From positions 11,507-75,506 of the IMG/VR virus record IMGVR_UViG_3300008107_010192: a DNA stretch of 64,000 nt; one strand, written 5' to 3'. Within the stretch, counting starts at the first letter, position 1; each line of letters begins with the position of its first letter. The DNA comes from a virus. Taxonomy: Duplodnaviria > Heunggongvirae > Uroviricota > Caudoviricetes. Both the position numbers and the translations under genes were made by a program. Shown here piece after piece: positions 4,556-30,887 of the stretch. The notes below the pieces were generated by a model, which saw nothing but the letters and a program-made list of their open reading frames with translations, ran no database searches and was not told the DNA's origin.

Positions 4556-4557
4556 AG

Positions 4558-6463: not shown

Positions 6464-6466
6464 TAT

Positions 6467-7629: not shown

Positions 7630-8005
7630 TTCCACGATATATTTTTTTCGTGGCAATCGATAAATTTCTATCAATATTCGGTTCACTATCCCAAGAACAG
7701 CTGTTTACCCAGTGCATGGGTGTTTTAAATATCCAATGACAATTTTTTTCTAGATTGACATTAAACGTCCATTCGTCACCAATCTTAGAAAATTCGTACA
7801 TATCATAAACATGGATCTTAACGTTATAATCAAGGGAATTTAATTCTGATTCAGTTAATTGGTAAATCCCTGAATCCCCCTTCCAGTTAACGAATATTTC
7901 TTCCCCCTCATCGATATCTCTAAGAGCAAAAATACCTACTCCGTGTATATTGCTCGGCGACATTTTAACGTTCACATGATTTTTGATGTATTCATATGCA
8001 GTCAT
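7571..8005 (-). CDS. SET-domain protein (putative protein lysine methyltransferase)
   Basis: IHGVGIFALRDIDEGEEIF (GxG..FA..I..GE.I SET N-region), VNSCSWDSEPN (NHSC.PN-like), RGNELFTKYG (EEL..YG C-flank), ~140 aa like viral vSET. Confidence 0.5.
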   Translation of the reverse strand: MTAYEYIKNHVNVKMSPSNIHGVGIFALRDIDEGEEIFVNWKGDSGIYQLTESELNSLDYNVKIHVYDMYEFSKIGDEWTFNVNLEKNCHWIFKTPMHWVNSCSWDSEPNIDRNLSIATKKIYRGNELFTKYGKYEKNKLFRTI

Positions 8006-8478
8006 TATATGAAATTTTTTGGTGTGGTTCTGAATTGAGATCCATAGTTTCCTAATATCTCTTCACCTTCTTTTATCTTTCTAATTGCAACAGGTGCCAC
8101 ATTATTATTGCTATCCACGTTACAGTTTTTCAATCCACTGTTCATAAACATTTTTGGCCAAATGTATATCCAGTGATAACCTCGCTCTAAGGGGAAAAAT
8201 ATTTTTCCATATTCCTTAGGTATGATTTGTTCGACCCCATTTTTATCAACAAACCACATTTTATTGTCAAAGGTTTCGTATAAATTTTTTTGGAGCTTAT
8301 CAGGGAGTGTGAATAATTCTTCCTGTGTAATTGAATATATCCCACTCTCCCCATGCCAAAGATCAAAAACAGATTCACCTGCTTCAATATCTCTAATGGC
8401 AAAAAATCCAACGCCCTCTACAGAACTCGGCTTAAGTATTGCTGTGACCTTTTGCTGAAGATATTCTAAAGGAGTCAT
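8005..8478 (-). CDS. SET-domain protein (paralog of 7571..8005)
   Basis: VEGVGFFAIRDIEAGESVF, MNSGLKNCNV, IKEGEEILGNYG; directly tandem to the other SET gene. Confidence 0.55.
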   Translation of the reverse strand: MTPLEYLQQKVTAILKPSSVEGVGFFAIRDIEAGESVFDLWHGESGIYSITQEELFTLPDKLQKNLYETFDNKMWFVDKNGVEQIIPKEYGKIFFPLERGYHWIYIWPKMFMNSGLKNCNVDSNNNVAPVAIRKIKEGEEILGNYGSQFRTTPKNFI

Positions 8479-8642: not shown

Positions 8643-10517
8643 TTATATTTTTGGTATTCCTCTGTTATGTGCTAAAATTCCATTAGCAAAAAAGTTATGA
8701 TTATTTTTAATATCCTGTAAATTATAAACTAGAGTGGTTTCTTCTATCATGTTTATGTTCACAATTTTTGAGCTCCCCTTTAATAACTTTAAACAGTCTC
8801 CAATCTCTATCTTACCGATTTTAGATTCTATAGTATACAGTTTATTAGATAGATTATTATCGAATGAAGACCATCCTTTATCTTCAACATATACTGGGTG
8901 ATCTATGGTACATTTTAAAAATTCACCATTCTCTAATTCATACTCAACAATTCGGTCCACTTTTTTACTATAAACAGCATTTACTGTATTGGCCTCAATA
9001 TTATTTGATAGCATGTTAAGTGTCAGTACAGAATCACCAGCAATAATATCCTCTATATTTTTTGTAACACCTTCCGAGATGGTTATTTTCGTGCCTGCAA
9101 CGAAACATGGTGCATTGTGTGTTACGAATGAATTGACAGGAGTTGATCCTGCTATTATGTAGGTGTCAGTATCCTCAACATCAATTTCAACTAAGCTGAA
9201 ATTGTTTTCATTAATTATTAATATTTCAGAATTTGTGACCTGCGCTAATGATCCATCATAATCTACTAAGTAATCTGTCGTTGTTTTTATGTTTACAGAT
9301 TGTTTCCATACGATCGAGTCCATTCCCTCGTCATAAACTAAGAAAGATTTATGAACCGACGTATAAATTGAATCCTCGTTATTATTTACTGTTATATTAG
9401 ATAATGTTTTATTCAACAATTCTTTACTATTTTTATATATAACAGTAGATGTCGTTAGATTAGATTCCGGTGGTAAGGTGTTTCCTGATATTTGCCAAGT
9501 TGGATATGTGAAGTCGTCTTCCGTTAAATCTGTTCCCCCTATATAATAAGATTTTATTTCTTCCCCGACAGAAATGTTCCCTATTTCTACCTCAGTATCA
9601 TCAGATTTAATTATTAAATGCGTGTTTAAAATGCCATCAATTATACCATCATATTTAATAAAATTTGTTGCAAACTCGTAATAATGTTTATTGTCTATCT
9701 TATTAATGTATTGGGCTTCATTATAAATTGATTCGACAGGTAATTCAAATGCCGCACTTTCCTGAAATTGTCCTACGTGAATTAGGGACAGATCACCTCC
9801 GTAAATAATCGAGAAAGTTCTCACTGTGGAAACTTTATTATCTGAAACGGTTTGTGAACTTATGTGATATTTTTGTATTACGTTATTTTCTGTTGCCTTT
9901 TCGCTGATGAATACTCCCCATCGGCTTTGGTCTGTATCTTCAGTGGATTCGCTGCCTATTTTATAAAAATCTATAAGGGAATGTTCCGCATCGCTTATGT
10001 TTTTTATTAAGCAATCTGGCAAATTTCCCGAATTAAAATCCCTAGAAATCGTATCGTATTGTCCGAGTGAGGATGAATGATAAAACTCCGCAACGCTATC
10101 CTGCTCATTATAATCACAGAATAGCCTAAGTGTGTTTAATGTTCCCTTAGCATACTCGCTATCAAAAATGGCTGATTCGTCATACGCCATTCTCAGAACG
10201 AATAAGTCTGAAGCATCCTCAACAGGAGTCGGGTATATTCTGTTTGATTGCTCTTTTATCTCCTTAAATTCTGTGATAAATGGAGCGTTCGATGTCAATG
10301 ATTCGGAAAGTTTATCGACTATATACTGATGTATGTTCGGCTTATGTACTACCGTTACTCTTGTGATGTTATTGCTCTCTAAAACCGAGATAAGGTCGTT
10401 AAAATCCAGATAGACTAAATTATTAGTCGAAATAGTTGTGTCTGTATTTACTTCCAATAGTCTTAAATTGCCAACGCTATCCTCAATAAAATCCGCGGAA
10501 AAAAAGGTTCCTTTCAT
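8643..10517 (-). CDS. large protein with C-terminal Hint (hedgehog/intein-like) autoprocessing domain
   Basis: C-terminal ~140 aa: CFVAGTKITISEG (Hint block A Cys) ... TIDHPVYV (block B TxxH) ... NHNFFANGILAHN (blocks F/G) then RGIPKI and stop. Hint-region coordinates about 8664..9091. Confidence 0.6.
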   Translation of the reverse strand: MKGTFFSADFIEDSVGNLRLLEVNTDTTISTNNLVYLDFNDLISVLESNNITRVTVVHKPNIHQYIVDKLSESLTSNAPFITEFKEIKEQSNRIYPTPVEDASDLFVLRMAYDESAIFDSEYAKGTLNTLRLFCDYNEQDSVAEFYHSSSLGQYDTISRDFNSGNLPDCLIKNISDAEHSLIDFYKIGSESTEDTDQSRWGVFISEKATENNVIQKYHISSQTVSDNKVSTVRTFSIIYGGDLSLIHVGQFQESAAFELPVESIYNEAQYINKIDNKHYYEFATNFIKYDGIIDGILNTHLIIKSDDTEVEIGNISVGEEIKSYYIGGTDLTEDDFTYPTWQISGNTLPPESNLTTSTVIYKNSKELLNKTLSNITVNNNEDSIYTSVHKSFLVYDEGMDSIVWKQSVNIKTTTDYLVDYDGSLAQVTNSEILIINENNFSLVEIDVEDTDTYIIAGSTPVNSFVTHNAPCFVAGTKITISEGVTKNIEDIIAGDSVLTLNMLSNNIEANTVNAVYSKKVDRIVEYELENGEFLKCTIDHPVYVEDKGWSSFDNNLSNKLYTIESKIGKIEIGDCLKLLKGSSKIVNINMIEETTLVYNLQDIKNNHNFFANGILAHNRGIPKI

Positions 10518-10557: not shown

Positions 10558-10767
10558 TCACTTTTTTAGACCATATTTTATATATCTATACCATACCCTC
10601 TCGTGTAAAAAATATAAGGCCATCTTGGTTATCACCTCAAAGCCGCCAATGGCGATTCCTATTTTTATATTACCTGTTATGGCCCAGCTTAAAATAATCG
10701 TATCTAATGTTCCGACTATTCTCCATGTTATAGTTTTAGCTATGTGTCTCTTTACCTGAGGCATCAA
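10558..10767 (-). CDS. DUF2061-like small membrane protein
   Basis: VKRHIAKTITWRIVGTLDT...KMALYFLHERVW resembles the DUF2061 consensus (ITWRI..T...LHER.W). Family recalled from memory as commonly found next to APS kinase genes. Confidence 0.45.
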   Translation of the reverse strand: MMPQVKRHIAKTITWRIVGTLDTIILSWAITGNIKIGIAIGGFEVITKMALYFLHERVWYRYIKYGLKK

Positions 10768-11107
10768 TTGTTCCCTCCCTTATTTTGGTACCGCTTATTA
10801 GCGCAATATTTTCTGGGGGCTCGTGGTAAATAACCTCATAACCTACCCCTCTCCCATAATTGATTGATTCAATGTCGGGAATTATCGAAAGAAGTATTCT
10901 GTCAGAATTTTTAACAAAAAACGATTCTTTGGAAAGATCTTCCAAAATTTGTTGTGCTTTTTTTGGATTATTGGCATCTTGATCTACGTCCCTGATAGCG
11001 ACCCAAATGTTTTTTCCCTTCTCTAACTGTTGATTAATAAGCCATTCGTGTCCTTTGTGCCAGTTCTGCCATCTACCTATATAGAGAGCATATTTTTTAC
11101 CTTCCAT
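10736..11107 (-). CDS. HxGH-motif nucleotidyltransferase (cytidylyltransferase-like)
   Basis: YALYIGRWQNWHKGHEWL matches the (T/H)xGH nucleotidyltransferase signature of the TagD/NMNAT/PPAT/ATP-sulfurylase fold; small (123 aa). Confidence 0.45.
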   Translation of the reverse strand: MEGKKYALYIGRWQNWHKGHEWLINQQLEKGKNIWVAIRDVDQDANNPKKAQQILEDLSKESFFVKNSDRILLSIIPDIESINYGRGVGYEVIYHEPPENIALISGTKIREGTIDASGKETHS

Positions 11108-11113
11108 TAATAT

Positions 11114-11542
11114 TTATACGCGCAGAAGGAGACAAAGTTCCACGAAAGATCTTTCTATGCTGGATCCGTTTCGAAAAATTAAAAAGTTTTCCTCAGGACC
11201 TTCAAAATTTTTAACGTGTAACTTTTCCTTCCCTCCGTAATCGTTCCTGGAAAATAAAACCTCTACAACATCGTTATTTTGCTTTAGATCTTCCCTTATA
11301 GCACGATAAGGACAAACCATACTTATCACCACGTTATGTCCTTTAACCGACATAAAACGAGCTATAGTGAAGGACCTTTCTATGTTCTTGATCCTGCCAG
11401 AATAAGAATAGTCAGTATTGGGGAATATTTCCCTCAGATCATCGCCATCTATCCATACAGTTCCCATTCCTAATCTTCTAACTAAGAGCTCTGCCATTGT
11501 AGTTTTACCCGATCCTGGCTGTCCTATTAATAGGTATATCAT
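11114..11542 (-). CDS. P-loop kinase, adenylylsulfate (APS) kinase-like
   Basis: LIGQPGSGKTT (Walker A), WIDGDDLREIF (compare CysC LDGDNVRHGL), RIKNIERSF...VVISMVCPYRAIRE (compare CysC RKENIRRV...VLTAFISPHRAER). Confidence 0.5.
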   Translation of the reverse strand: MIYLLIGQPGSGKTTMAELLVRRLGMGTVWIDGDDLREIFPNTDYSYSGRIKNIERSFTIARFMSVKGHNVVISMVCPYRAIREDLKQNNDVVEVLFSRNDYGGKEKLHVKNFEGPEENFLIFRNGSSIERSFVELCLLLRV

Positions 11543-11704: not shown

Positions 11705-12052
11705 TCATTTATAATTATTTTTAAATTCCTCTAATCCCATGGCTTTATCGTCGATTAGGTAGTCATAATGCAATTTTCCCATTATCAGTCCATGGTGATT
11801 TATTCCCCATTCTTTTAAACTATCCAGGGTAAGAACATAAAGACTGTTATAAACCTTAACCAGATCTCCATTGAACTGTCCCATTCCCCTAGCAGTGTAA
11901 ATGTAAATGGTGTGACCCTCATCATAAAGTTTATTCGATTTATCAATCATGTGCTTTATGGGTACACAATGTTTATATTTATCTGGGCCAAGGTGTTCCA
12001 GATTTTTATCCCGGGTACATAATGTATCGTCTAAATCAAATGCGTAAATCAT
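11705..12052 (-). CDS. HAD-superfamily phosphatase-like
   Basis: N-terminal MIYAFDLDDTLC (DxDxT motif I); small 115-aa HAD core. Confidence 0.5.
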   Translation of the reverse strand: MIYAFDLDDTLCTRDKNLEHLGPDKYKHCVPIKHMIDKSNKLYDEGHTIYIYTARGMGQFNGDLVKVYNSLYVLTLDSLKEWGINHHGLIMGKLHYDYLIDDKAMGLEEFKNNYK

Positions 12053-12153: not shown

Positions 12154-13113
12154 TTATTGGACATAACTGAGCAGTCTTATTAATCTTTGCTTTATGTTAT
12201 TTTTAATCGTTTCATCCATAGAATAATCCATTTTAATAATATTATTTAATTTTTGATAGTTATAGTGACCGCAAACCATTATTAATTTTCTTTTATTCGA
12301 AAAATCAAAATTCAGATCTACCCACTTTTCCCATTTTTTAGAATCGTAGCATACCTCGTAAAACATGTCTATCTGATCCTTTTCCATAAAATCTATTATC
12401 GTTTCCGTTTCAATTTGTGCTATTTCTGGCCCAATATTCAAACTATTCAATCCTCTTTTAAATCTTACAACAATATCCGGCCAATCAAGATAATCGCCAT
12501 TATGTTCCTTTGATTTCTTTCCATATGATTTGCATATTCCGATCATAGATTCTAAATCTTCTATATTGAATTTTCCTATATTTTTTTTATTAGCTATATC
12601 TAAACCCACCCCCGATTGAATACACACATATTCTATTTTTTCAAATTCATCCCCGGTTAGACCAATTTGTAATTCTCTCAAAAAAAAATCCAGATCTTCA
12701 GTGGTAATTTTTTTGATTGCCTCTTCTGTCCCAACTTCAAATAAGATGTTTGAATTTAATTTGTGAATGAATTTAATGTTTTCGATTGTTTCTTTTGTCC
12801 CAGATTCGATATCTTGGTATTTTTTCCATGGATCTATGTGTACGATATCAAGATACTTGGAGTCATTAAAATAAGATTCATATTCGTCAGTGTCTCCTTG
12901 CCCTATTCCCCCATGATCCCTTTCTATTATTATTTCGGATCTTTCTTTGACATAATTCTTGAATGCTTCGGTTGTCCAATTATTAACATATCCTCCATTA
13001 AATTCTATCTGTCTTCTGCTTGGCAATAATCCTATCTTTTTAGAGCCCAATTCTATGACTGCATCCACTATGTTTTTAGACATTGGACATATGAAATAAT
13101 TTATTTCAGACAT
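12154..13113 (-). CDS. GatZ/KbaZ (tagatose-6-phosphate kinase/aldolase-subunit) family-like protein
   Basis: Aligns by eye to GatZ: ICPMSKNIVDAVIELG / ICSVCSAHPLVIEAAL; EFNGGYV / NQFGGYT; ERDHGGIG / GGDHLGPN; VHIDP / IHLDAS; EVGTEE / VIGTEV. Confidence 0.4.
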   Translation of the reverse strand: MSEINYFICPMSKNIVDAVIELGSKKIGLLPSRRQIEFNGGYVNNWTTEAFKNYVKERSEIIIERDHGGIGQGDTDEYESYFNDSKYLDIVHIDPWKKYQDIESGTKETIENIKFIHKLNSNILFEVGTEEAIKKITTEDLDFFLRELQIGLTGDEFEKIEYVCIQSGVGLDIANKKNIGKFNIEDLESMIGICKSYGKKSKEHNGDYLDWPDIVVRFKRGLNSLNIGPEIAQIETETIIDFMEKDQIDMFYEVCYDSKKWEKWVDLNFDFSNKRKLIMVCGHYNYQKLNNIIKMDYSMDETIKNNIKQRLIRLLSYVQ

Positions 13114-13762
13114 ATTCTATTCCCGTGTATATTTTAAACTGTTCGATAGCTTGATATCTTGACATTAATTTTCCGCTTTCGAATTCTGTTCTTGCTTCGA
13201 TAATCCGACCGTTTGTGCAAACGTCCACTGGAGTTGCATTAAAAATCCACCCATCCAAACTTTCAATTTTGCTCCAGTTTTTCCTTTCTATTATTTCATA
13301 CTCTATTCCCCGAATTCTACACACATATTGGACTGCTAGACTAAAACCTCCATTTCCCAGTATGGCTATTTTTTTAACTTCCCTTGGTAAATATTTATCT
13401 ATGCCAATCCAGTCTGTGTTGTAACCGAGTAATTTGTTATCAACTATTTTAACAGTATTACACGAACCAATATCTGCGACGGAAGAATCACACCAATCTA
13501 AATAATCTAATATTTGCACTTTATACGGCATGCTAATTGCAAATCCACCAAATTTTAAGTTCTTAGCGGATTCTACCGATAATTCTATATCGTCGCTATA
13601 AAATGATTTATAAATTGCATCAACTGAATACTTCTGAAAAGCACTATTGAAAAAATGACATCCATTATTTCCTGGGTTCTTTGAAAAAGATCCGAATATC
13701 TTAGTATCCTTGTTTATCAACACCTGCGACATTTTATAGTGATAATAATATATTTTCAGCAA
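13106..13762 (-). CDS. shikimate/quinate dehydrogenase-like (AroE family), C-terminally short
   Basis: KIFGSFSKNPGNNGCHFFNSAF (AroE substrate domain), GGFAISMPYK (catalytic Lys), SCNTV, LLGYNTDWIG (NTD motif), IAILGNGGFSLAV (Rossmann GxGG). Confidence 0.6.
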   Translation of the reverse strand: MLKIYYYHYKMSQVLINKDTKIFGSFSKNPGNNGCHFFNSAFQKYSVDAIYKSFYSDDIELSVESAKNLKFGGFAISMPYKVQILDYLDWCDSSVADIGSCNTVKIVDNKLLGYNTDWIGIDKYLPREVKKIAILGNGGFSLAVQYVCRIRGIEYEIIERKNWSKIESLDGWIFNATPVDVCTNGRIIEARTEFESGKLMSRYQAIEQFKIYTGIEYV

Positions 13763-14519
13763 TTATATACTGTCCAGTTTCGTTTGGGTGATGATCGTTA
13801 ACTAATTCTTCCCAAAATTTTGTATCATAATTTTTATATCTGTCAGAATATCTTAAGCATTCATTTGATGTAAACCTCTGAGCGTCGATATTAAATTCAT
13901 CATCATCTAGCGGAAAGTAAATAATTCTGCTTGGATGAGTAATTGTTTTAATGACATTTTCTTTCCTTTTTTGCGTGGAATTTACATCTTTAGGATGTAT
14001 AGGGTTTAAAAACCAATATTTAACTGTCGCACCTATTTTATTTTCCAAATAATCAAAAACAGGAAGTACGTTTTTAAATCCAAGAATTAATAATTCAATT
14101 CTAAAATCTAAAACGAAATCTACGTATTTTTTCATTTTTTCTTCATCATAAAATTTTTCACTCCTGAAATAATCAATCTGATGCCAATCAAAATCTATCA
14201 ATACGTCATTTATTTCAAATATGTCTTTACTAGACCACGATTCTCTTACGTGGTTTTCGTTAACAAAAGGTACAGGGAACCTATCTGGGTATGTAAACTC
14301 GAAAACCACTAAATCCCCCTTCTTTATTTTTTCCATCTGCCTGAACAGCTTTACCGTAGATTCAAAATTGGATTGACCACTAAACCCGTTATTTACAAAA
14401 TTGAATCCAATTTTTTCGGCTAATATTTCTGGCCAAAATTTCAAGCCGTATTCTTTTTCGTGATGTGGAGAATGAGTCCAACTACATCCGTAAGCCCATA
14501 GTGTGTTTTTTGTAATCAT
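13734..14519 (-). CDS. SGNH-like hydrolase paralog (GCS variant)
   Basis: LWAYGCSWTHSP in place of GDS block I, NGFSGQSN, NDHHPNETGQYIIA (block V). Confidence 0.45.
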   Translation of the reverse strand: MITKNTLWAYGCSWTHSPHHEKEYGLKFWPEILAEKIGFNFVNNGFSGQSNFESTVKLFRQMEKIKKGDLVVFEFTYPDRFPVPFVNENHVRESWSSKDIFEINDVLIDFDWHQIDYFRSEKFYDEEKMKKYVDFVLDFRIELLILGFKNVLPVFDYLENKIGATVKYWFLNPIHPKDVNSTQKRKENVIKTITHPSRIIYFPLDDDEFNIDAQRFTSNECLRYSDRYKNYDTKFWEELVNDHHPNETGQYIIAENILLSL

Positions 14520-16413
14520 CTAGAATTTCTATAGATTTGAACCATAACATTTTACCAAATTTTCCATCGTGTAATGGAGACATATTTAGAAATATCAGGC
14601 CTGTTATAAATTTAATCTTATCGAGATCGAATCCGTTTTTCCTGATCCATCCCTCATATTCAGATCTAAACTTAATTAGATTCTTTGAGATATGATATTC
14701 ATATTTAATAGAATAAGATCCTTCAAAGTATGTGATATTACTGTCATCTTTCATTAAATTGTATGGGATTATTAATCCGCCATAAAACTTAGAAAGATCG
14801 TAATAAATGTCTCCAGATTCTACATTTTCTCCAAAGCAGTCTCTCCAGTCTATGTAATAGTATTCGCCATCTTCCGATAATATCATATTATCAAAGTGGA
14901 GATCACCATGAAAATTAGAATAGAAAGGATTCTCGTAAAGACAGTCAAATATTTTTTCATCAGATAATATAAGATCCAAAGATGGTCTTTTAATTTCGTT
15001 TATTTCATGATCAGAAACAAAATAACTTTCTCCATATTTAGCAAGAAATGATTCTAGTCTTTTATGGGTTTTGTCGACATAAAACTTTTTAAGATCTTCT
15101 ATGTTTGCAGGGATTGTCTCCTTGGTGAGGAATTCCAGCTTTGTCAAAAACCTACTAAAATCCCCCAGTTCCCCGCGATCGTATAAAGTTTTACCTTCTA
15201 TCCAATCGTAATAAAGAAAATTCCCAGCAACATTGAAATTTGGGGGAACCAAGCCTCTTAAAATTTCTCCTCTAATTTTCCTTCTTTCTAGCAGATCTCT
15301 ATCTTGTGTAAACTTTAAAAATTTACCCCCGTCCTTATAGGTTATTTCTCCTATGTCTTTTTTCAAAGATAGCGGTTTATCATTAAAGTACTGTCTAGCT
15401 TTATCTAGATCGTCTAGATTTCCGGTATCTAGCCATTTTAACTTTTTTGCCTTTAGACTTGTATAGACTTGAGGTGATTCAAATGCAGAAACTAATTCAC
15501 CGCTTTTAATATTTTCTTTAAGCTCTTTCCAGAAAGTGGAGTAATCTGATATTCCTCCGAAACCAACAAATGCTAGATCGTATCCGTCAGTACTTTTGTT
15601 AACGAAAGATGTTATATTTTCTTTATCGTCCATCTTCACCGTGGAGTATTTTTCTGGATATGATGTTGAATGAACCCCTAACCAGTTACCGTTTATTCCA
15701 GGGATCGGAGAATCTATGATACAATCTCCCATTATAAAATAAAAAGGTCTTTGAAGATGCTCGGAGCACAACAGAGCGCTTGTACCTGGCCCAGTTTGCG
15801 AAGGATCATAATTCTCGACATTTACGAATGTAAATTTGTGATCTGGATAAACTAGATTACAATACTCTTTGACGGAATCTCCCTTGTATCCAATAGCTAT
15901 GATAAAGTCATATTCCTTAGGGAATTTTTCTATTATGTAGGATATGATAGCCCGATTGTTTACCGGCAATAAAGTTTTATTTATGTTGTCTGTTAATTTT
16001 TTTAGACGGCTACCTAAGCCTGCACATAATATTAAAACCGCGGGAGTTTTATGCTCGCTTTCGATCTTTCCATCAGGTCTATTTGTATCATCCTCCACTC
16101 GTATTACATCGTCGACCTCCGGGGTAGAAACTTCTTGCATTATCAGGTCGGTCAAAGCAATTACCCTGTGTTTTTTAGGAGGAATTACGTTATAGTATTG
16201 ACCTGGGCCGTACACCTCCTTAACAATTTCACCTTGATCATTCTCCAGCCAAATTTCTGCTTGTCCCGATATGATATAGTTAGTTTCTTTTTTAAAGTTG
16301 TGATACTGTAAAGATGTTTTATATCCCTCGTTTATATAGATTCTTTTATAACAATAAGAATCATTAAGTTCTATCCATTCTTCTTTACCCCACGGTTTAT
16401 AAATTGTTTTCAT
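14482..16413 (-). CDS. tri-domain fusion: cupin (mannose-6-P isomerase type-II-like) + sugar-1-phosphate nucleotidyltransferase + APH/choline-kinase-fold kinase
   Basis: N-term YKPWGKEEWIELND...SLQYHNFKKETNYIISGQA (cupin); middle VLILCAGLGSRLKKLT...KTLLPV (NTase G-x-G-x-R-L motif); C-term FHGDLHFDNMIL...YYIDWRD (Brenner HGDxxxxN and D of DFG). Confidence 0.6.
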   Translation of the reverse strand: MKTIYKPWGKEEWIELNDSYCYKRIYINEGYKTSLQYHNFKKETNYIISGQAEIWLENDQGEIVKEVYGPGQYYNVIPPKKHRVIALTDLIMQEVSTPEVDDVIRVEDDTNRPDGKIESEHKTPAVLILCAGLGSRLKKLTDNINKTLLPVNNRAIISYIIEKFPKEYDFIIAIGYKGDSVKEYCNLVYPDHKFTFVNVENYDPSQTGPGTSALLCSEHLQRPFYFIMGDCIIDSPIPGINGNWLGVHSTSYPEKYSTVKMDDKENITSFVNKSTDGYDLAFVGFGGISDYSTFWKELKENIKSGELVSAFESPQVYTSLKAKKLKWLDTGNLDDLDKARQYFNDKPLSLKKDIGEITYKDGGKFLKFTQDRDLLERRKIRGEILRGLVPPNFNVAGNFLYYDWIEGKTLYDRGELGDFSRFLTKLEFLTKETIPANIEDLKKFYVDKTHKRLESFLAKYGESYFVSDHEINEIKRPSLDLILSDEKIFDCLYENPFYSNFHGDLHFDNMILSEDGEYYYIDWRDCFGENVESGDIYYDLSKFYGGLIIPYNLMKDDSNITYFEGSYSIKYEYHISKNLIKFRSEYEGWIRKNGFDLDKIKFITGLIFLNMSPLHDGKFGKMLWFKSIEILDDYKKHTMGLRM

Positions 16414-17128
16414 GATATTGATCTTGATTATTTCCCCAATCCATCGTTTTTTGGAATATCGTATTTATAGATATCTCTTCTTTATTTAACTGTCTAGAGT
16501 TAGCCCTTACAGTAACGACAGATGTTCTTGGAATTTTTTTAATTTTTATTTCACTTAGTAAAATGTGTTTGGCTAAGTGATGATGCATGGAGCCGTTACA
16601 TTCGTTTCCGTCTAATCTTTCCGGTATATTATCAATTAATTTTTCGATTAGATCATATTTACCAAAGAAAAAAATATCCTGTATGAATAATTCTTCCCCG
16701 TTATTTCTAATCTCTTCTAACCCGTATACAGATCCCTCTCTTAAATCCTCATCCGAATTTATATTCTCAAAATCGAAATTAAAATCAAAATAATTATCAG
16801 GTCTTGTTAGCATGATATAATCATATTTTATACCGCTTTTTTTGATCATTTTAAGCCCGGATTTCCAGTGGAATATCATCTTTTCTGGATTGGTTAATTC
16901 AGAAAACACATCATCTAATATTAAAACATTTGCGTCTTTAATATGATCTAATATTCTTTTTTCTGTGACTTCCTCGTCGATTATGATGTCTAGTTTTTTA
17001 TTTTTTTGCTTGGATCTAGACCATGTTGAAAAATAAACCTCGCAATCAAACTTGCTTAAAAAATTCCAAGAAGTAACAGCAATATCAAATTCCCTATACA
17101 TCCCATAAACCAAAATTGCAATTTTCAT
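16397..17128 (-). CDS. GT-A-like putative glycosyltransferase (MKIAI family paralog)
   Basis: MKIAILVYGMYREFD...YFSTW and HWKSGLKMIKKSGIKYDYIMLTRPD resemble the W.K......YDYI.(D/R)xD core of GT34/nucleotide-diphospho-sugar transferases. Confidence 0.3.
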   Translation of the reverse strand: MKIAILVYGMYREFDIAVTSWNFLSKFDCEVYFSTWSRSKQKNKKLDIIIDEEVTEKRILDHIKDANVLILDDVFSELTNPEKMIFHWKSGLKMIKKSGIKYDYIMLTRPDNYFDFNFDFENINSDEDLREGSVYGLEEIRNNGEELFIQDIFFFGKYDLIEKLIDNIPERLDGNECNGSMHHHLAKHILLSEIKIKKIPRTSVVTVRANSRQLNKEEISINTIFQKTMDWGNNQDQYHENNL

Positions 17129-17784
17129 ATGATTTTTACCTTTGATTTTATTTCATTTTCTATGTATTGGCAAAAATCCCTATGACCCTTGAATGACCAG
17201 TGATGGTTTACTATTTCTCCCTTTGTTGCATTGACTATTAATTCAAATTTTTCCCAGAGACTTTCTACATCCCAGATATAGCAGAGATTTACTCCTCTAT
17301 CTTTTAGTAGTCTTTCTCTCAAAAAATTCAGTCTAAAATCGTGTCTGATAGAATAAGCTTTCTGTGTTGCAAATTCTATTGAAAACATTTTTATGGTCTC
17401 TATCTGCTCGTTGGTAAATAATCCAACGGTTGCATCTTCAAACCATTTTTGTACGTCTTTTTCCCCTCCCCTATAAACTATAGATTTGACTTCCGGTGAA
17501 TCATTTTCTTTCGGAAAGTCAAATCTGTGTGACCAGGTTTTACCTATTATTACTATATCGTCCTTAGAAATATCCTCCCAGTTTTTTATTATAGTATCAA
17601 TAATAGTATCGTTAGACACCCCAGGTAAACCTTTATTTTGTAGAGCATAGTTTATTTTTCTGGATAATAATTTATTCCAAGAAAGGTCATCATCTTTTAA
17701 CCTATATCTTTGATAATATAGATCATGATCTAATGTGCCGTCTCCGTATGTAAAAGAACATCCAAATGTCCAGATTTTATTCAT
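17125..17784 (-). CDS. SGNH-like hydrolase paralog (GCS variant)
   Basis: IWTFGCSFTYGDG, KGLPGVSNDTI, NHHWSFKGH. Confidence 0.45.
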   Translation of the reverse strand: MNKIWTFGCSFTYGDGTLDHDLYYQRYRLKDDDLSWNKLLSRKINYALQNKGLPGVSNDTIIDTIIKNWEDISKDDIVIIGKTWSHRFDFPKENDSPEVKSIVYRGGEKDVQKWFEDATVGLFTNEQIETIKMFSIEFATQKAYSIRHDFRLNFLRERLLKDRGVNLCYIWDVESLWEKFELIVNATKGEIVNHHWSFKGHRDFCQYIENEIKSKVKII

Positions 17785-19562
17785 ATTAATATTTTATCTA
17801 TGACCTCTGTTTCACCTCCGGGGAACACCGCTATATCTTCGAACAGAACCTCATTGTCCCCAAGTCCCCCTAATTTTAATTGTTTTTTGAGAGTTATAAA
17901 ATTCCTAAATTTGCATATCTGAAAATTAAGAGGGGTAGTTTGATTCTTTACTCCAATCTCTTTTAAATAGTGATAAAAAACTAACTCAGGTATCAGGTGG
18001 TTTCTGCTTTCTTCAAACGTTCTAATGTCTATACTTGGTAGGTGCCTATAAAAATCGCAAATTTTATCGAACGTTAAAGAATCTGAAAACCAAAACACAT
18101 CACCAATTGCAAAATGAGGGTAAACATCAATTTTTCTATTATGTATAGAAAATATAGTATTTGGTTTAACAGTTGATAAAATTTCGATTAAATCAAAAAC
18201 CTGTCCCCATGGAACATATTGATCGTACCGTAATCTGATACAAACATCATATTCGAAATTATTTTCTATCTCGTATTGTCTTTTCAATTCGCACGATCTC
18301 ATCACTGCATAAAACTGGTTTGCACACCAAGTAATGGGCGGACCTTCATTTTCTGGATATCTCTCCTCTGCAATGTCAATAACATCCTGGTTTACTCTTT
18401 GATTTTTTTCAAAATCCTCAATTAGATATTTTTTCGGTTTGTATATTTTAATTATTTCATTTAATTTATCATCGTCGTACGGAGTTACTCTATTATTGGC
18501 GGTTACATCCAATATTGGTCTGGATTCGCTTTCAAAATTCCAAGCATGGCAGAAAAAGTCGACAGTGCTATTAGGATCACTTTCAACTTTATTTTTTAGC
18601 TTTATTATGTTGTGGTAGCATTTTTCATAAGTTCTGAATTGACCACTTAAGCAGATAGCAATTTTCATAGTTCTTAATTTTTTTAACACATTGGGTGAAA
18701 ACCCGGTCTTTTCAAAAATTTCTTTTTTGAATTTCAAAAGTAGATTGTATCCGATGTGTTTGACGTTTGATAATTTTTGAAACTCGTGATTATATAATAT
18801 TCTATTGATTTCAACACACTCCCTAAAATTATCCACTGGATGATAACCCAGGGAGAATTCTCTAAAGATTGTCCACTTATACTCCATTTCATTTAGAAAC
18901 TCTATAGATTCTATATTATTTTCCTTGAGATAATCATCAAAAAACACGTGATAAAGATCTTTGCTTTTATCTGTTGTGATAATATAGTTATGAAACAATG
19001 AAGCCTTATCCATAACTGAGGAATTTGACATAAATACCACATCATGCAGCATTCTGCTTGAAGGATTCTCAAATTCTGTTATTGTGTCGACTAAAAAAAT
19101 ACCATTTTTGATAAAAGAAATGTTGTCGTGAATTATATTTTTTAATTTAATCGACGGATCATATATGCAATCCATTCTCATTTTTATTACAACGTCGTAT
19201 TGAAAATTGTTTTCCTCTTCGTATTTCTTTTTTAAATTAACACTTTCATACCAGCTGTACCACATCGGGGAATTTGATGTCCCCTTTTTTAGAGACAAAT
19301 CGTAATAGTCCTCGTAAATATCAACCTTAGTTTTTTTTGGTTTGTATATGTTATTAATTTTTATGTAATCATTTAGTTCTACCTTCTTGATATGGGTATA
19401 TTCATGTTCGGGTCTTTCGTCCCCAAAAAATCTTTTACCGTCATTAATATCCCACGTGTGTATAAAATAGTCGGCCTCACATCCCTCAATAAAATTGAGT
19501 ATGTTGATGGAAGAATCAACTGCCCTTCTTATTTGACCACTAAAGCAAATCGCAATTTTCAT
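17781..19562 (-). CDS. protein with two tandem copies of the MKIAI GT-A-like domain
   Basis: MKIAICFSGQIRR...YFIHTWDI and again at residue ~300 MKIAICLSGQFRT...FFCHAWNF; each half ends in YDVVIKMRMD / YDVCIRLRYD. Confidence 0.3.
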   Translation of the reverse strand: MKIAICFSGQIRRAVDSSINILNFIEGCEADYFIHTWDINDGKRFFGDERPEHEYTHIKKVELNDYIKINNIYKPKKTKVDIYEDYYDLSLKKGTSNSPMWYSWYESVNLKKKYEEENNFQYDVVIKMRMDCIYDPSIKLKNIIHDNISFIKNGIFLVDTITEFENPSSRMLHDVVFMSNSSVMDKASLFHNYIITTDKSKDLYHVFFDDYLKENNIESIEFLNEMEYKWTIFREFSLGYHPVDNFRECVEINRILYNHEFQKLSNVKHIGYNLLLKFKKEIFEKTGFSPNVLKKLRTMKIAICLSGQFRTYEKCYHNIIKLKNKVESDPNSTVDFFCHAWNFESESRPILDVTANNRVTPYDDDKLNEIIKIYKPKKYLIEDFEKNQRVNQDVIDIAEERYPENEGPPITWCANQFYAVMRSCELKRQYEIENNFEYDVCIRLRYDQYVPWGQVFDLIEILSTVKPNTIFSIHNRKIDVYPHFAIGDVFWFSDSLTFDKICDFYRHLPSIDIRTFEESRNHLIPELVFYHYLKEIGVKNQTTPLNFQICKFRNFITLKKQLKLGGLGDNEVLFEDIAVFPGGETEVIDKILI

Positions 19563-20709
19563 ACTCTAATAAATAATCTCCAATGTCTAGATTTCTTATA
19601 GAATCCATCATTTTTAAAAAATTGGAAGATTTTTTTTCTAAATTCCCATCTTTTTTATTTTCTATCTCGTACATAAATCTATTTCTGTCGCCATCTCCCA
19701 ATTTGTAGATTTGCTCCATTGCAAGATCCTTCAGCTTTGGGTGTAAACAAGATATGTGTAAGTAATTGGGGCTATAGACAAAATTATATTCAATTTGTTC
19801 ACCGGAAAAAAACTCTCTAAAATTCCACACATTACAAACATTCAAAACACTTATTGTCTGGGTTATAGTAATTTGTAATTTTTCTTTTTTCAGTTTTAAA
19901 AAATTATCATACACAACTTCCCATTTTGAAGGATATCTTATATAATCATTCCTATTTCCAACGTCGTCTATAGAAAGCTGTAGTTTTACCTCCCGAAATT
20001 CTCTTAACAGCTCTAAAAACCTGTCTGGTAAATTTGTACAGTTTATGTTATATACCAGCTTTATATTTTTTGATTTGTCTAGAGAAATCAACTTCTCCAA
20101 AAAGTAAAAATGCTCCTTTATCAACGTTGGTTCTCCCCCGTTGATGTAAATTTCCTCCAATTCGCTAGAATGCTTTAATAATTCATCATACCATTCTTTG
20201 TTTTTAAACCAATCGCTTTTATAATCTTCATAGTTGTAATGATCGTCTCCGAACGTGGACGGAAATCTTTTAACATCTTCTATCCACTTGCTACTTGACA
20301 TCGGGTTGCATGTTAAACACTTTATGTTACAAACATTACCGAGTCTTAATTCGATAAACTTAAGATGTATATTTGGGAGTTTTTCGCTTATACTTATTTT
20401 ATTGAGATATTTAGCATTTTCTTCATCTCTTTTACTCTTGAATCCGTTTTCTTCTATCCTGTAACAACCTATACATTCGATAGGTTTCTCATTATTCATC
20501 ATCTTTCTTCTAATTTCTGTGAAAGAATCAGAATTCATAATGTCTTCTATGCTATCCTTACCTAGGGTTAATACTCTATTTTTAGTTTTGGAGAAACAAA
20601 CCCCATTTTCAAAATTAGCAATACAACAAGGTGACACCAGCCCGTTAGGATGAGTTGCTAAATGCGTAAACGGTAACGAACATATAGTTTTTAAATTTGT
20701 GTCCACCAT
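19540..20709 (-). CDS. radical SAM enzyme with N-terminal 4-Cys module
   Basis: CSLPF...SPCCIANF...ECIGCY (C...CC...CxxC), GNVCNIKCLTC (CxxxCxxC), IYINGGEPTL (GGE SAM-binding motif). Confidence 0.6.
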   Translation of the reverse strand: MVDTNLKTICSLPFTHLATHPNGLVSPCCIANFENGVCFSKTKNRVLTLGKDSIEDIMNSDSFTEIRRKMMNNEKPIECIGCYRIEENGFKSKRDEENAKYLNKISISEKLPNIHLKFIELRLGNVCNIKCLTCNPMSSSKWIEDVKRFPSTFGDDHYNYEDYKSDWFKNKEWYDELLKHSSELEEIYINGGEPTLIKEHFYFLEKLISLDKSKNIKLVYNINCTNLPDRFLELLREFREVKLQLSIDDVGNRNDYIRYPSKWEVVYDNFLKLKKEKLQITITQTISVLNVCNVWNFREFFSGEQIEYNFVYSPNYLHISCLHPKLKDLAMEQIYKLGDGDRNRFMYEIENKKDGNLEKKSSNFLKMMDSIRNLDIGDYLLEYENCDLL

Positions 20710-22028
20710 TCTAATAATTTTTTGTTTTGTCCTAGAATATTCTCAAATGTTAATGATCCATTTAAACCGTCCTTTCTGAACTCTGCTATTCTTATCATGT
20801 TTTCTTTCCCTCTCTTTCTGCCCTCTTTATAATCTGGATACGATTCTTCGAAAGTTTTTTTGGTTTTTAAATCTTCTAAAGCCTCCACATAAATTTGGGT
20901 TTTCGATGTAACCCTTGGCTTAATGTAATCTAGGGTATCGTCTATAATTTCTTCGAGGATGGACCTAGGTATTGACAATGGAGACATAAGAACAGAGGAA
21001 TCGAAAGAAAAAGTTGTTTTTATATAGGTTACTACATTTAATTCCACTGCACGATCGAATAATTCTTTTATAGACAGTAGGCCTGGAAGAGTTATTGTAA
21101 GATCAAAAACCATTCCATGATCGCCGTATAAATCGTTTAGAAAAAGACCTCCCTTAAAATTATCTAGCCACTTTTCCCACACTATTCCAGTTCTGATAAA
21201 TTCAACAATTTTTCCAGTTCCATCTATACTTGCACACAGATTTACCCTTTTAAAATGAGGCAGAAAATCATATAGATTCATTCCTTTATATGATACCCTG
21301 CTTAAATTTGTGTTGTATCTTATTATAACATTCTTGGATTGATTATTATCAACCAAATACTTCATGATATCCCAATGAATGTCCCACATCAATGGTTCAC
21401 CACCTACCCAATATATTTCTTCTATTCTATTCTCTTTCACTGCTTCCCAAAGTTCGTTTTCAGTAACTTCTTTCTGGAATTTTTTAAATTTTTCTTGATT
21501 TTCTTTTTTATAAAATGGCTCGGTTTCTAAATTAATGTTGCCCATTATTTTTCTTTCCGCCTCCCACTGTGAACTTAACAAGTCGCCACACATTCTACAT
21601 TTAAAATTACACAGATTACTTATCCGATAGTCATATGATATTGGTTTCATGTGAGTGTAACCATCATCTTCCGTTTTTTCGAATATCTCGTCTATTTTGT
21701 GGGGAAAAAGTGTATTGGTGAAATAACCTTTGTATGTGTAAAGATTTAGAATTTGATCGTTACAAACCTGACATTGTGGAATTGACTCTCCGGACATTAT
21801 TCTTTTTCTAATGTTTTTCATATAATCACTATTCCAATGATCCTCCAGCGAAACTGGTTTAAAATGTGAGTTATCGTCAGGATTTTCAGAATCTATGTAC
21901 TGTTTAATATAGTTTGCCTTTTCCCTACTTGCACAACATAATCTTCTTTCCCCCTGTGGGGAAAGATATGTGTGTGTCCACGGTGCTGTACAAAAAAATT
22001 CATTTCCATCCGAAGGTTTTATTCTCAT
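20691..22028 (-). CDS. radical SAM enzyme with N-terminal 4-Cys module (paralog)
   Basis: FFCTAPWTH...RRLCCASR...PQCQVCND, SNLCNFKCRMC, YWVGGEPLMW. Confidence 0.6.
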   Translation of the reverse strand: MRIKPSDGNEFFCTAPWTHTYLSPQGERRLCCASREKANYIKQYIDSENPDDNSHFKPVSLEDHWNSDYMKNIRKRIMSGESIPQCQVCNDQILNLYTYKGYFTNTLFPHKIDEIFEKTEDDGYTHMKPISYDYRISNLCNFKCRMCGDLLSSQWEAERKIMGNINLETEPFYKKENQEKFKKFQKEVTENELWEAVKENRIEEIYWVGGEPLMWDIHWDIMKYLVDNNQSKNVIIRYNTNLSRVSYKGMNLYDFLPHFKRVNLCASIDGTGKIVEFIRTGIVWEKWLDNFKGGLFLNDLYGDHGMVFDLTITLPGLLSIKELFDRAVELNVVTYIKTTFSFDSSVLMSPLSIPRSILEEIIDDTLDYIKPRVTSKTQIYVEALEDLKTKKTFEESYPDYKEGRKRGKENMIRIAEFRKDGLNGSLTFENILGQNKKLLEWWTQI

Positions 22029-22945
22029 ATTAATCTGCTAGATTTTATTATATTCTGCGTATAGAGATCACCCCTTCCGTTTGAAATCCATTCATACAAC
22101 AATTCTGCCCATAATTTGTGCGATTTGGGTGTTGGATGTACACCATATAATCTTTCCTCCAACGGTATCTGTTTTATATAATTTAAAAATGAATTTGATG
22201 GCTTGTCTTTCATCAGAAAATTGGATTCTGGTACATGGTCCCATTTTAATTTACTCATACGGTATAGATCCTCCCCCCAAATACCTTCAACATATTTGAA
22301 AGAATCTATCCATTTCATAATATTTAAGTCTATAAATTTTCTTTCCATTTTATAGATATGATGTTCCTCAGGTAAAGCATTGAACAAATAACATGGAATT
22401 CCGTACTTATCGCAAAACGTACGTATTTCAAAATTGTAGTTTATGAAATCGTACGCTCCTTCATAGTCATTTTGAACAACCGATAAATACCACTTAAAGA
22501 ATTCCCTCATTCCATATTCCTCTTTATTGAAATCTCCGTTACTGTTTAGAGTTTTTCGGTATATTTTATTATGAGTATTGAAAAAAAATTCCTTTCTAAC
22601 TATAGAGGTCCATCCAATGACTACAATGATGTCATCTGGAGTTTTATTAGGGACAATGTAGTTTTCAAGTAGCCAGTTTAAAAGTGTTTCAAAAATCCAT
22701 TTGTTACCTACTGCAGGCTTGGCTAAATTTATAACCTCTTTTGCCCCTATTAATTCTTTTAAATATGTTGGCCAAATTCTTTCAATCCTATATTGATCGT
22801 TTTTTGCGTCAGTATCTTCTTCTATTATCCCGTTAAATTTATTTATTTGGTGAGGCTTTGATGGAGCTTCCAAAAACTGTGGGTCCACAATTTCACTACC
22901 ATATGTAAAGCTATCTCCGCACACAACTAATTTCATTTCACTCAT
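22025..22945 (-). CDS. SGNH/GDSL-like hydrolase paralog
   Basis: KLVVCGDSFTYGSEI (GDS block), C-terminal YGVHPTPKSHKLWAEL (block V-like). Confidence 0.4.
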   Translation of the reverse strand: MSEMKLVVCGDSFTYGSEIVDPQFLEAPSKPHQINKFNGIIEEDTDAKNDQYRIERIWPTYLKELIGAKEVINLAKPAVGNKWIFETLLNWLLENYIVPNKTPDDIIVVIGWTSIVRKEFFFNTHNKIYRKTLNSNGDFNKEEYGMREFFKWYLSVVQNDYEGAYDFINYNFEIRTFCDKYGIPCYLFNALPEEHHIYKMERKFIDLNIMKWIDSFKYVEGIWGEDLYRMSKLKWDHVPESNFLMKDKPSNSFLNYIKQIPLEERLYGVHPTPKSHKLWAELLYEWISNGRGDLYTQNIIKSSRLI

Positions 22946-24497: not shown

Positions 24498-24498
24498 G

Positions 24499-30684: not shown

Positions 30685-30886
30685 CTATTGTAGGGTCCTT
30701 TGGTTTTATCGATTTATGAAATTCCGTCAGATAGTACTGAATCCTGTTGCTCCAATCATCCTTATCAATATCTTCTATCCAAGCTGAAATGTCATCGAGG
30801 GAATCTGAGATTCTTTCGAGTGCTTTTACTTTTCTAAGTTCCAATTCTAAAAATTGATCCTCGTTTGATTTTTTAGCTGTTGCCAT
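30677..30886 (-). CDS. small acidic hypothetical protein
   Basis: 69-aa ORF filling the gap between flanking genes; predicted helical and acidic. Confidence 0.25.
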   Translation of the reverse strand: MATAKKSNEDQFLELELRKVKALERISDSLDDISAWIEDIDKDDWSNRIQYYLTEFHKSIKPKDPTIDG

Positions 30887-30887
30887 A

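Follow-up and report, generated by a model that had tools for sequence, protein, structure and literature searches.

The locus analysed here raises the question of what a tailed virus makes with a single polypeptide that carries a cupin, a nucleotidyltransferase and a kinase. The gene lies in a 64,000-nucleotide stretch (positions 11,507 to 75,506) of the IMG/VR virus record IMGVR_UViG_3300008107_010192, class Caudoviricetes; this whole stretch is referred to as the window, and the protein as F. An earlier note, made from the letters of the sequence, had proposed that F salvages a free sugar or a choline-like headgroup and turns it into an activated donor for the glycosyltransferases of the surrounding island. 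Domain scans, structure prediction, profile comparisons and a census of related loci lead to a different answer. With moderate confidence, we propose that F and its operon partners provide a de novo, ATP-driven and mutase-free route from a ketose-phosphate to a nucleoside diphosphate (NDP)-sugar, and not a salvage pathway.

Three domains and their conserved partners

F is encoded on the minus strand by one uninterrupted ATG-to-stop frame of 643 codons, which confirms the open reading frame (ORF) as it was first read. The protein and its domains are as follows:

14482..16413, minus strand: F, 643-aa tri-domain protein (cupin, nucleotidyltransferase and kinase), recognised from the ORF, its domains and its family
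16051..16413, minus strand: F residues 1–121, type II phosphomannose isomerase (PMI)-type cupin with a conserved C-terminal tail (DDVIRVEDDTNRPDGKIESEH), matched by PF01050 and CpsB
15376..16050, minus strand: F residues 122–346, sugar-1-phosphate nucleotidyltransferase (G132-x-G134-x-R136, K146, D230), matched by PF00483, Arch_glmU, HddC and in Foldseek
14494..15351, minus strand: F residues 355–640, kinase of the APH/choline-kinase fold (K367, H502-G-D504-x4-N509, D522-W-R524), recognised with AlphaFold, Foldseek and RB69 gp52

An identical F protein is encoded in 45 blocks of public contigs; in IMG/VR, 75 different viral contigs, the longest of 299 kb, contain the gene, and contigs of 219–299 kb are available for this phage lineage. 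Among 855 homologs retrieved by a word-indexed search, the 120 best range from 632 to 643 aa, with 57–88% identity. No internal stop or frameshift was found, and a frameshift or a reading as three separate genes is excluded because full-length homologs recur. The AlphaFold model of full-length F (pLDDT 86.9, pTM 0.75) consists of three compact domains (residues 1–104, 122–346 and 355–640), the segments between them being of low confidence. Conservation of residues was read from alignments of 28–36 homologs; column identity is highest in the cupin (84%) and lower in the nucleotidyltransferase (60%) and the kinase (46%).

The cupin (residues 2–107) matches the Pfam family MannoseP_isomer (PF01050) with E=3.4e-8 and 34.1 bits (cutoff 23.6) over profile positions 10–115 of 116, and TIGR01479 over positions 357–466 of 467. 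Its profile finds the PMI domain of Escherichia coli ManC/CpsB at 2e-11. A joint alignment with CpsB shows no variation at W8-G9, K23, G30, S34, H38, E43, G50, H82, E94, D102 and R105, and CpsB also has Q36; across 36 family members, S34, Q36, H38, E43 and H82 do not vary. The motif that had drawn attention to the domain (KPWG at residues 6–9, QYH at 36–38 and E43) is present, as are the PWG motif and the complete metal-ligand set, Q-x-H-x4-E with a distal histidine. Residues 105–121 were at one stage taken for a linker; they form a conserved C-terminal tail that also occurs in free-standing cupins. Against the PDB, the cupin profile gave weak matches to small cupins only, and the RmlC and FdtA families were not matched. 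The cupin is a complete type II PMI domain, for which the sequence predicts isomerase activity.

The nucleotidyltransferase motif of the earlier note (LCAGLGSRL at residues 128–136, K146 and LPV at 149–151) was likewise found, and G132, G134, R136, K146 and D230 are invariant. The Pfam NTP_transferase match (PF00483) starts at residue 127 and scores 29.4 bits (cutoff 21.2). Among the NCBIfam models, Arch_glmU (residues 126–277, E=5.5e-15) is followed by HddC as the second-best match (1.4e-11). Foldseek placed the domain with RmlA, GalU, HddC and VTC1 (E about 1e-13, HddC 5xhw being among the top folds); these structure matches are mostly anomeric sugar-1-phosphate nucleotidyltransferases. The nucleotidyltransferase of CpsB gave no match to this domain.

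The kinase motif (HGDLHFDN at residues 502–509 and IDW at 521–523) is also present. The Pfam APH match (residues 399–543) stayed under the cutoff (19.9 against 23.2 bits), and a search of the PDB with the sequence profile of the kinase gave no match; owing to the weak Pfam call, the assignment was decided by predicted structure. The AlphaFold model of residues 355–643 (pLDDT 92.3, pTM 0.91) shows a bilobal fold with an HxDxxxxN catalytic loop and a Mg-binding aspartate, and K367, H502, D504, N509 and D522 are invariant, as are K448, R452, R524 and K542. Foldseek matched the model to choline/ethanolamine kinases, which are the best folds in the PDB, and to APH(9), APH(3'), MphH and FN3K (probability 1.0, E about 1e-4, TM about 0.5). 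The predicted structure thus confirms an APH-type fold, of a divergent kind, so that the kinase assignment stands on the fold and not on the Pfam score. Together, the domain scans and structure models support the three domains that had been proposed on one polypeptide.

How far the architecture extends was seen in an exhaustive search of 1.84 billion representatives. The family of fused nucleotidyltransferase-kinases counts 535 clusters at 50% identity (E<=1e-30). Its commonest form has these two domains (about 120 of the top 150 representatives), and the cupin-bearing form is a sub-branch of about 17. The view that such kinases and nucleotidyltransferases are known only as separate proteins is contradicted by these fusions, one of which, AfhE, has been characterised (PMC13326640). 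The added cupin is indeed unusual, but the nucleotidyltransferase-kinase fusion itself is common.

AfhE and AfhF belong to the pathway for arabinosyl-5-hydroxycytosine in the DNA of E. coli phage HY126, with analogs in phage RB69 (gp52:53, gp51 and gp55) and in Acinetobacter phage DLP3 (gp82, gp81 and gp83) (PMC13326640). In this pathway, a SIS isomerase yields arabinose 5-phosphate, the C-terminal kinase of AfhE converts it to arabinose 1,5-bisphosphate, the HAD phosphatase AfhF (RB69 gp51) takes off the 5-phosphate, and the N-terminal nucleotidyltransferase of AfhE forms UDP-arabinose (PMC13326640). In a viral structure library, RB69 gp52 was the best single-domain match of the F kinase (E=1.6e-11, TMt 0.61), far above any kinase in the PDB, and the nucleotidyltransferase matched RB69 gp53 (2.8e-9, TMt 0.72); with tblastn, gp52 gave 27.7% identity (E=6e-5). 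Among described enzymes, the AfhE type comes nearest to the nucleotidyltransferase-kinase part of F, which is a remote relative of gp52/gp53 and not a close member of their group. A more extended match was found for F residues 125–618 with gp047 of Enterococcus phage 9183 (hhalign 99.3%, E=1e-20), which aligns end to end over 467 columns.

Downstream of F, the genes S, A and H follow in the same direction, often overlapping, and this string recurs in about 73 of 80 related loci, as seen in iterative searches over these loci. The partners in the window, together with the gene upstream of F, are:

13106..13762, minus strand: S, SdhL-type oxidoreductase of the shikimate-dehydrogenase family, about 208–218 aa, the true start lying probably a few codons inside the ORF; PF08501 and SdhL matches
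12154..13113, minus strand: A, GatZ/KbaZ-like protein of the class II aldolase fold, candidate ketose-phosphate C4 epimerase or aldolase; profile match to GatZ
11705..12052, minus strand: H, minimal HAD phosphatase of 115 aa (DxDxT), homologous to RB69 gp51, which is the AfhF analog; profile, hhalign and tblastn matches
16397..17128, minus strand: U, 243-aa DUF7796-family protein directly upstream, overlapping the start of F, candidate transferase; family census

S is present in 77 of the 80 loci. It matches PF08501 (E=1.1e-11), and its profile finds the SdhL protein HI0607 (1npy) at 2.4e-47 and the 5-ketofructose reductase 7cok at 1.6e-21. The catalytic lysine and aspartate of the N-terminal substrate domain and the GxGG loop for NAD(P) are present (invariant K71, D107 and G126-x-G-G, that is G126/G128/G129), and the Rossmann domain is short by about 50–60 residues. 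A, a protein of about 320 aa without annotation, occurs in 76 of the 80 loci. Pfam gave no match for the A protein of the window taken alone, and PF08013 matched weakly on the fusion protein P0299 described below; the profile of A finds GatZ (2fiq, 8.5e-6), 3txv (1.8e-5) and KbaY (8e-4). The invariant D66, H67, E130 and H204 of A align with D87, H88, E171 and H257 of GatZ, which are the residues reported for the GatZ/KbaZ C4 epimerases of fructose 6-phosphate and tagatose 6-phosphate (PMC11907403). H belongs to a family of about 118 aa that is syntenic in 73 of the 80 loci; its profile finds 9iqw (3.9e-11) and 1xpj (4e-9). The match of H to RB69 gp51 is clear, with an hhalign probability of 97.6% (E=3.4e-12) and, by tblastn on the window, 34.5% identity (E=2.9e-14). 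The U family (about 250 aa) is found in 48 of the 80 loci, and DUF7796 matches 10 of 25 members; a search of the PDB with the U/DUF7796 profile gave nothing, no named homolog was found, and all sources call the protein hypothetical.

H-type phosphatases also accompany relatives of F elsewhere. Enterococcus phage 9183 gp047 adjoins the H-type HAD gp046 (hhalign 99.3%), and in cyanomyovirus S-CAM1 a homologous cupin is paired with an H-type HAD. As homologs of A, gp048 and gp050 of the Enterococcus phage were rejected, and so was a 261-aa protein of S-CAM1 as the missing kinase. RefSeq labels these AfhF-type proteins 'phosphoheptose isomerase' (RB69 gp51, L083 5709–6095; S-CAM1 SXBG_00218, L006 4682–5005; 9183 gp046, L007 2646–2990). 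Each of the three is a homolog of H (hhalign 97.6–99.3%), so that the label is a misannotation that has been propagated; the same wrong name is widespread for the pathway's small HAD phosphatases in RefSeq phage records. In the Enterococcus phage 9183 record (L007, record 28004–35380), gp047 and gp046 lie amid genes for thymidylate kinase, thymidylate synthase, dUTPase, thymidine kinase and DNA polymerase, which suggests an undescribed sugar-based DNA modification in this phage group.

Unfused and differently fused versions join the same components. In the marine virus AG-345-E15 the parts are separate genes, arranged as U, H, a cupin of 116 aa, a nucleotidyltransferase-kinase of 516 aa and A, with S missing; the cupin ORF overlaps the start of the nucleotidyltransferase-kinase gene, and its product shares 47% identity with CpsB residues 370–478. 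P0299, a fusion of the nucleotidyltransferase-kinase with A, is encoded on a contig of 48% GC (locus L086, 2554–8483) beside a free cupin, a full-length shikimate dehydrogenase-family protein, a HAD, an inositol-monophosphatase-family gene and a Wzx flippase; this is a cellular polysaccharide locus. In P0292 (1390 aa), A, the cupin, the nucleotidyltransferase and the kinase are joined in this order; its intron-containing gene belongs to the parasitic dinoflagellate Amoebophrya sp. A120 (GCA_905178155.1; L087 8001–13115). P0373 is a fusion of DUF7796 with the nucleotidyltransferase-kinase, and P0344 carries about 245 extra C-terminal residues after the nucleotidyltransferase-kinase that look GT2-like by eye alone. 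The extra N-terminal 120 aa of P0263, P0270 and P0275 had been considered a fused HAD and gave no HAD match; P0282 has a second cupin instead.

The proposed pathway and its alternatives

The composition of the operon bears on the type of substrate. An AfhF-type HAD, a GatZ-like protein, a shikimate dehydrogenase-family protein and a PMI-type cupin argue for sugar phosphates and a bisphosphate intermediate, and not for free sugars. A SIS isomerase, a phosphomannomutase and a ManC-type nucleotidyltransferase were each found neither in the window nor in the 80 loci, and tblastn with RB69 gp55, the SIS-type arabinose-5-phosphate isomerase, gave 0 matches in the window and in more than 80 loci. The cupin, and the kinase together with the HAD, are therefore the only candidates for the corresponding steps.

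In the route that we propose, a ketose-phosphate from central metabolism, possibly remodelled by A (through its C4 epimerase/aldolase fold) and by S as NAD(P) oxidoreductase, would be isomerised by the cupin of F to an aldose-phosphate; the cupin would thus take the role that SIS isomerases (GmhA, KpsF-type) have in the heptose and arabinose pathways. The kinase of F would then phosphorylate the anomeric C1 to give an aldose-1,n-bisphosphate, from which H would strip the distal phosphate, and the nucleotidyltransferase of F would join the resulting aldose-1-phosphate with a nucleoside triphosphate. The NDP-sugar would be used by the DUF7796 protein and/or by the glycosyltransferases of the island. 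The class of substrate, the order of the steps, the regiochemistry (specificity for C1) and the bisphosphate intermediate are proposed by analogy with AfhE/AfhF and the NDP-heptose pathway, and our leading guess for the sugar is a hexose of the manno/talo type or a heptose. That kinase and nucleotidyltransferase make an NDP-activated donor for glycosyltransferases, as had been suggested earlier, fits the AfhE-type homology and the surrounding islands of glycan genes.

Several observations weigh against this proposal. A plain route through PMI, kinase, HAD and nucleotidyltransferase needs neither S nor A. Since both are conserved to the same degree as H, the model is incomplete, and the cupin may work on something other than a simple ketose-6-phosphate. 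For the isomerisation of fructose 6-phosphate/mannose 6-phosphate expected of a PMI, the conserved GatZ-like partner suggests that the ketose may be a different one. The kinship to the arabinose enzymes is remote: hhalign gave 74% for the F kinase with gp52 (E=2.8e-5) and 77% for the F nucleotidyltransferase with gp53 (E=2e-5), in both cases for the motif regions only, the former covering the catalytic region with the common motifs ID(W/P)R..FG and FY..K...R. The best sequence matches of the nucleotidyltransferase are cytidylyltransferases of non-anomeric phosphoalcohols (LicC at 3.3e-6, which is the best match in the PDB, PntC and IPCT), with alignments over nearly the full domain to LicC, PntC, G1P cytidylyltransferase and the inositol-1-phosphate cytidylyltransferases 2xme and 4mnd. 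The regiospecificity of the kinase lies beyond what can be read from its sequence. The nucleotide, finally, is not fixed by neighbouring genes. Typing of the short-chain dehydrogenase/reductase (SDR) genes at the loci with NCBIfam and with E. coli Gmd, Fcl, RfbB and RfbD gave a mixed set, with Gmd in 7 and an RfbB-like gene in 13 of the 80 loci; the window holds no bona fide Gmd, no RfbB-like gene and no SDR dehydratase. GDP-mannose, at first considered as the product through a neighbouring Gmd when a first census had counted a PF16363 family in 47 of the 80 loci, was accordingly downgraded to one candidate.

The alternative that survives best gives roles to S and A, which are otherwise unexplained. 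S would reduce a ketose-phosphate, perhaps one already epimerised or cyclised by A, to the phosphate of an alditol or cyclitol; the kinase and H would shift the phosphate, and the LicC/IPCT-like nucleotidyltransferase would yield a CDP-polyol for phosphodiester decoration of glycans. CDP-ribitol, CDP-glucitol and CDP-inositol are CDP-linked polyols of this kind. The cytidylyltransferase matches described above favour such a product, as do the substrates of the S family, which acts on cyclitols and keto-sugars (SdhL, 5-ketofructose reductase), and the inositol-monophosphatase-family gene of the related locus L086. A PMI-type aldose-ketose isomerase, however, has no obvious role in making a polyol, and RB69 gp53 is LicC-like and nonetheless makes UDP-arabinose. 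Moreover, anomeric sugar-1-phosphate nucleotidyltransferases dominate the structure matches, and the unfused module of AG-345-E15 does without S. Overall, we regard the polyol route as unlikely.

In another arrangement, kinase and nucleotidyltransferase would activate a sugar and the cupin would act afterwards, epimerising or isomerising the NDP-sugar in the manner of the 3,5-epimerase RmlC or the ketoisomerase FdtA. NDP-4-keto sugars are the substrates of many cupins in sugar clusters, and SDR dehydratase/reductase-like genes directly adjoin the operon in many loci. This order is distinctly unlikely in view of the match to PF01050 and to the PMI domain of CpsB over the whole length of the cupin, with all PMI metal ligands kept; a match to the RmlC and FdtA families was not obtained, and the window is without an SDR dehydratase.

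Salvage of a free sugar, as in the earlier note, would have the kinase act at C1 of the sugar in the manner of AmgK and NahK and the nucleotidyltransferase activate the product, with H, S and A unrelated. APH-fold anomeric kinases of free sugars do exist, and the substrate pocket of the F kinase is not readable from its sequence. The HAD would nevertheless be redundant, although it is syntenic and an AfhF-type homolog; cupin and A, both phosphosugar-enzyme types, are fused to the nucleotidyltransferase-kinase in independent lineages; and a sugar phosphate is the substrate of the protein closest to the kinase in structure. With its conserved partners and its own cupin all of phosphosugar type, F is very unlikely to work on a free sugar or a choline-like headgroup.

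For a LicCA-like activation, in which the kinase acts on choline, ethanolamine or a phosphonate precursor and the nucleotidyltransferase forms a CDP/CMP derivative, one can cite LicC as the best PDB sequence match, choline/ethanolamine kinases as the best PDB folds and the label 'choline kinase' given by JGI to some family members, but this reading is hardly credible: it leaves no role for the PMI cupin, the GatZ-like protein and the partner of sugar-bisphosphatase type, choline kinases reach a TM of only about 0.5 while RB69 gp52 matches much better, and the same LicC and choline-kinase best matches are reported for the arabinose-5-phosphate enzyme RB69 gp52:53 (PMC13326640), so that the resemblance is not diagnostic.

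As for the acceptor, a search for a ThyA-like 5-hydroxy-dCMP synthase and for DNA arabinosyltransferases with RB69 gp48, gp46 and gp47 and the ThyA of the Enterococcus phage gave 0 matches in the window and in flanks of 10 kb on either side of the loci, the rest of the phage genomes being outside this view. DNA hypermodification as in RB69 is unsupported, there being no ThyA-like gene in the window or the flanks; as no ThyA-like 5-hydroxycytosine synthase lies nearby, arabinose is an improbable sugar, and the acceptor may be something other than DNA.

Returning to the NDP-sugar route, we put forward as a tentative extension that the operon is a self-contained, uncharacterised pathway to a rare activated sugar or polyol outside GDP-mannose, UDP-arabinose and NDP-heptose, for example a talo/galacto-hexose derived from tagatose 6-phosphate, with DUF7796 as its possible dedicated transferase. 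Large marine phages, giant viruses, bacteria and Amoebophrya would share this pathway, and phages would apply its product to their virions, to DNA or to the surface of the host. If the proposed NDP-sugar route holds, large marine phages drive a sugar phosphate of central metabolism, with ATP and without a mutase, into an activated donor from which there is no return, and the isomerase, kinase and nucleotidyltransferase steps are welded in one protein. The AfhE/AfhF logic, recently discovered and so far described only for the arabinosylation of phage DNA, would be widened to a much larger and more varied family, which reaches from phages to a cellular polysaccharide locus and a eukaryote. The proposal offers testable roles for SdhL-type 'shikimate dehydrogenase-like' proteins, for GatZ-like proteins outside galactitol catabolism and for DUF7796, and the identity of the sugar would reveal what abundant ocean viruses glycosylate.

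The genome around the operon

The window is part of a large tailed-phage genome, with collagen-like T4-type tail-fibre genes, 20 tRNAs, a tmRNA and about 32% GC. A bacterial lipopolysaccharide/O-antigen island is ruled out by the tail fibres, the 20 tRNAs, the tmRNA and the occurrence of the exact gene on viral contigs (75 IMG/VR loci); the island of the earlier note is thus set in a phage genome and not in a bacterial one. Two further features lie close to F:

17781..19562, minus strand: 593-aa protein, the C-terminal part of which is a second DUF7796/U-type domain (PF25072, E=1.3e-5)
13734..14519, minus strand: 261-aa SGNH/GDSL-like protein between F and S, accessory and outside the conserved core (weak Lipase_GDSL_3 match)

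The SGNH/GDSL-like insert between F and S is found in the close relatives L002, L003 and L011 only. In other loci, jackhmmer searches with the queries designated D and U hit one and the same set of ORFs. An APS-kinase-like P-loop protein (PF01583, 3.9e-11) and a 123-aa HxGH nucleotidyltransferase-like protein (weakly NMNAT-like) are encoded side by side just downstream of the operon, at 10736–11107 and 11114–11542 (minus strand); they may form a sulfate- or nucleotide-activation pair.

The operon loci are glycan islands with GT1, GT2, GT7, GT8, DegT and SDR enzymes. In the window, the glycan genes comprise two fusions of GT7 with a lectin domain, a GT2-like gene, a methyltransferase, GT8, a DegT fragment, a fusion of GT2 with radical-SAM, a GFO/IDH/MocA oxidoreductase, an ATP-grasp protein, PAP2 and a DXD glycosyltransferase. 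The many glycosyltransferases described earlier are therefore present, although the immediate neighbours of F are not glycosyltransferases. The two GT7 genes stand in tandem at 27839–29281 and 29278–30684 (minus strand) and combine a domain of the animal beta-1,4-galactosyltransferase type, an unusual family for a phage, with a Laminin_G_3/ConA-like lectin domain. The gene at 40547–42730 (plus strand) encodes 727 aa with a GT2 glycosyltransferase domain fused to a radical-SAM domain. Four further radical-SAM proteins lie in a row at 19540–26531 (minus strand), two of them with SPASM located N-terminal to the radical-SAM core; a DUF6071 protein (22025–22945) and a ConA-like lectin-domain protein stand amid this run. 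A UDP-galactopyranose mutase (Glf) at 61176–62264 (plus strand) is about 50% identical to the glf product of Streptococcus suis phages, and homologs also occur in Rhizobium and Aeromonas phages; Glf has been linked to galactofuranosylated DNA in phage RL38J1 (PMC13326640).

Other genes of the window were noted in passing. The tmRNA (Rfam, 79.5 bits) lies at 36839–37223 (plus strand), phage-encoded tmRNA being uncommon, and the tRNAs are located at 38885–38956, 52131–53090, 53887–55989, 58864–59524 and 60756–61140. Two long overlapping ORFs at 46184–49315 and 48798–50822 (plus strand), with a GC content of 0.45–0.49 against about 0.32, encode collagen-like repeats and T4-type distal tail-fibre or baseplate-wedge domains, and since they overlap, either a frameshift or a single fibre gene of great length is suspected. 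An IMP dehydrogenase/GMP reductase family protein (PF00478, 1.6e-97) at 35718–36788 (plus strand) could influence the supply of guanine nucleotides. On the minus strand, the 624-aa product of 8643–10517 carries a Hint/intein-like domain at its C-terminal side (residues about 463–621) and has an N-terminal part without annotation, and fourteen short co-directional ORFs of 144–272 aa are tightly packed at 677–8478, some with SET-domain or 2OG-Fe(II) oxygenase matches (precomputed Pfam of the identical contigs L002 and L003).

Comparison with known systems

The bacterial NDP-heptose pathway uses the isomerase GmhA, the kinase HldE or HddA, the HAD phosphatase GmhB and the nucleotidyltransferase HldE or HddC. 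Its logic is that proposed for F, from a ketose-phosphate through the aldose-phosphate, the 1,n-bisphosphate and the aldose-1-phosphate to the NDP-sugar, with no mutase, and HddC is the second-best NCBIfam match of the F nucleotidyltransferase (see above). The other enzymes differ in fold: a cupin stands in place of a SIS isomerase, an APH-fold kinase in place of a ribokinase or GHMP kinase, and the minimal 115-aa HAD in place of GmhB.

AmgK/MurU, NahK, LicA/LicC and the FKP-type kinase-pyrophosphorylases activate free sugars or choline by salvage and need no phosphatase. Like F, they pair a kinase with a nucleotidyltransferase for the activation of a small molecule, and F has in common with the AmgK/MurU/LicA/LicC set an APH/ChoK-fold kinase and the LicC/MurU-like N-terminal motif of the nucleotidyltransferase. 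The conserved phosphosugar partners of F, however, argue for a bisphosphate route.

With the type II PMI-GMP enzymes (ManC/CpsB and AlgA; TIGR01479), F shares a PMI cupin and a nucleotidyltransferase on one chain, homology over the full length of the cupin and the ligands S-x-Q-x-H-x4-E and H. The order is reversed in F, where the cupin comes first, and the nucleotidyltransferase is of another subfamily, closer to RfbA and GalF; in addition, F has gained a kinase, and the phosphomannomutase partner is absent at its loci.

Fusions of nucleotidyltransferase and kinase with an AfhF-type HAD are already known, and literature searches for the present architecture found nothing beyond PMC13326640. 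AfhE/AfhF and F have in common a phage-encoded polypeptide with an N-terminal sugar-1-phosphate nucleotidyltransferase and a C-terminal APH-fold kinase, an adjoining minimal HAD phosphatase of the same family and, for F as proposed here, a logic of isomerisation, C1 phosphorylation, distal dephosphorylation and nucleotidyl transfer. The isomerase is a separate SIS-type arabinose-5-phosphate isomerase there and a fused PMI-type cupin here, and the F locus has two further obligatory partners, the SdhL-type dehydrogenase and the GatZ-like protein. New in F and its operon are a fused PMI-type cupin that stands in for the isomerase of the SIS type, obligatory partners of the SdhL and GatZ-like types, the association with DUF7796 and the breadth of the family.

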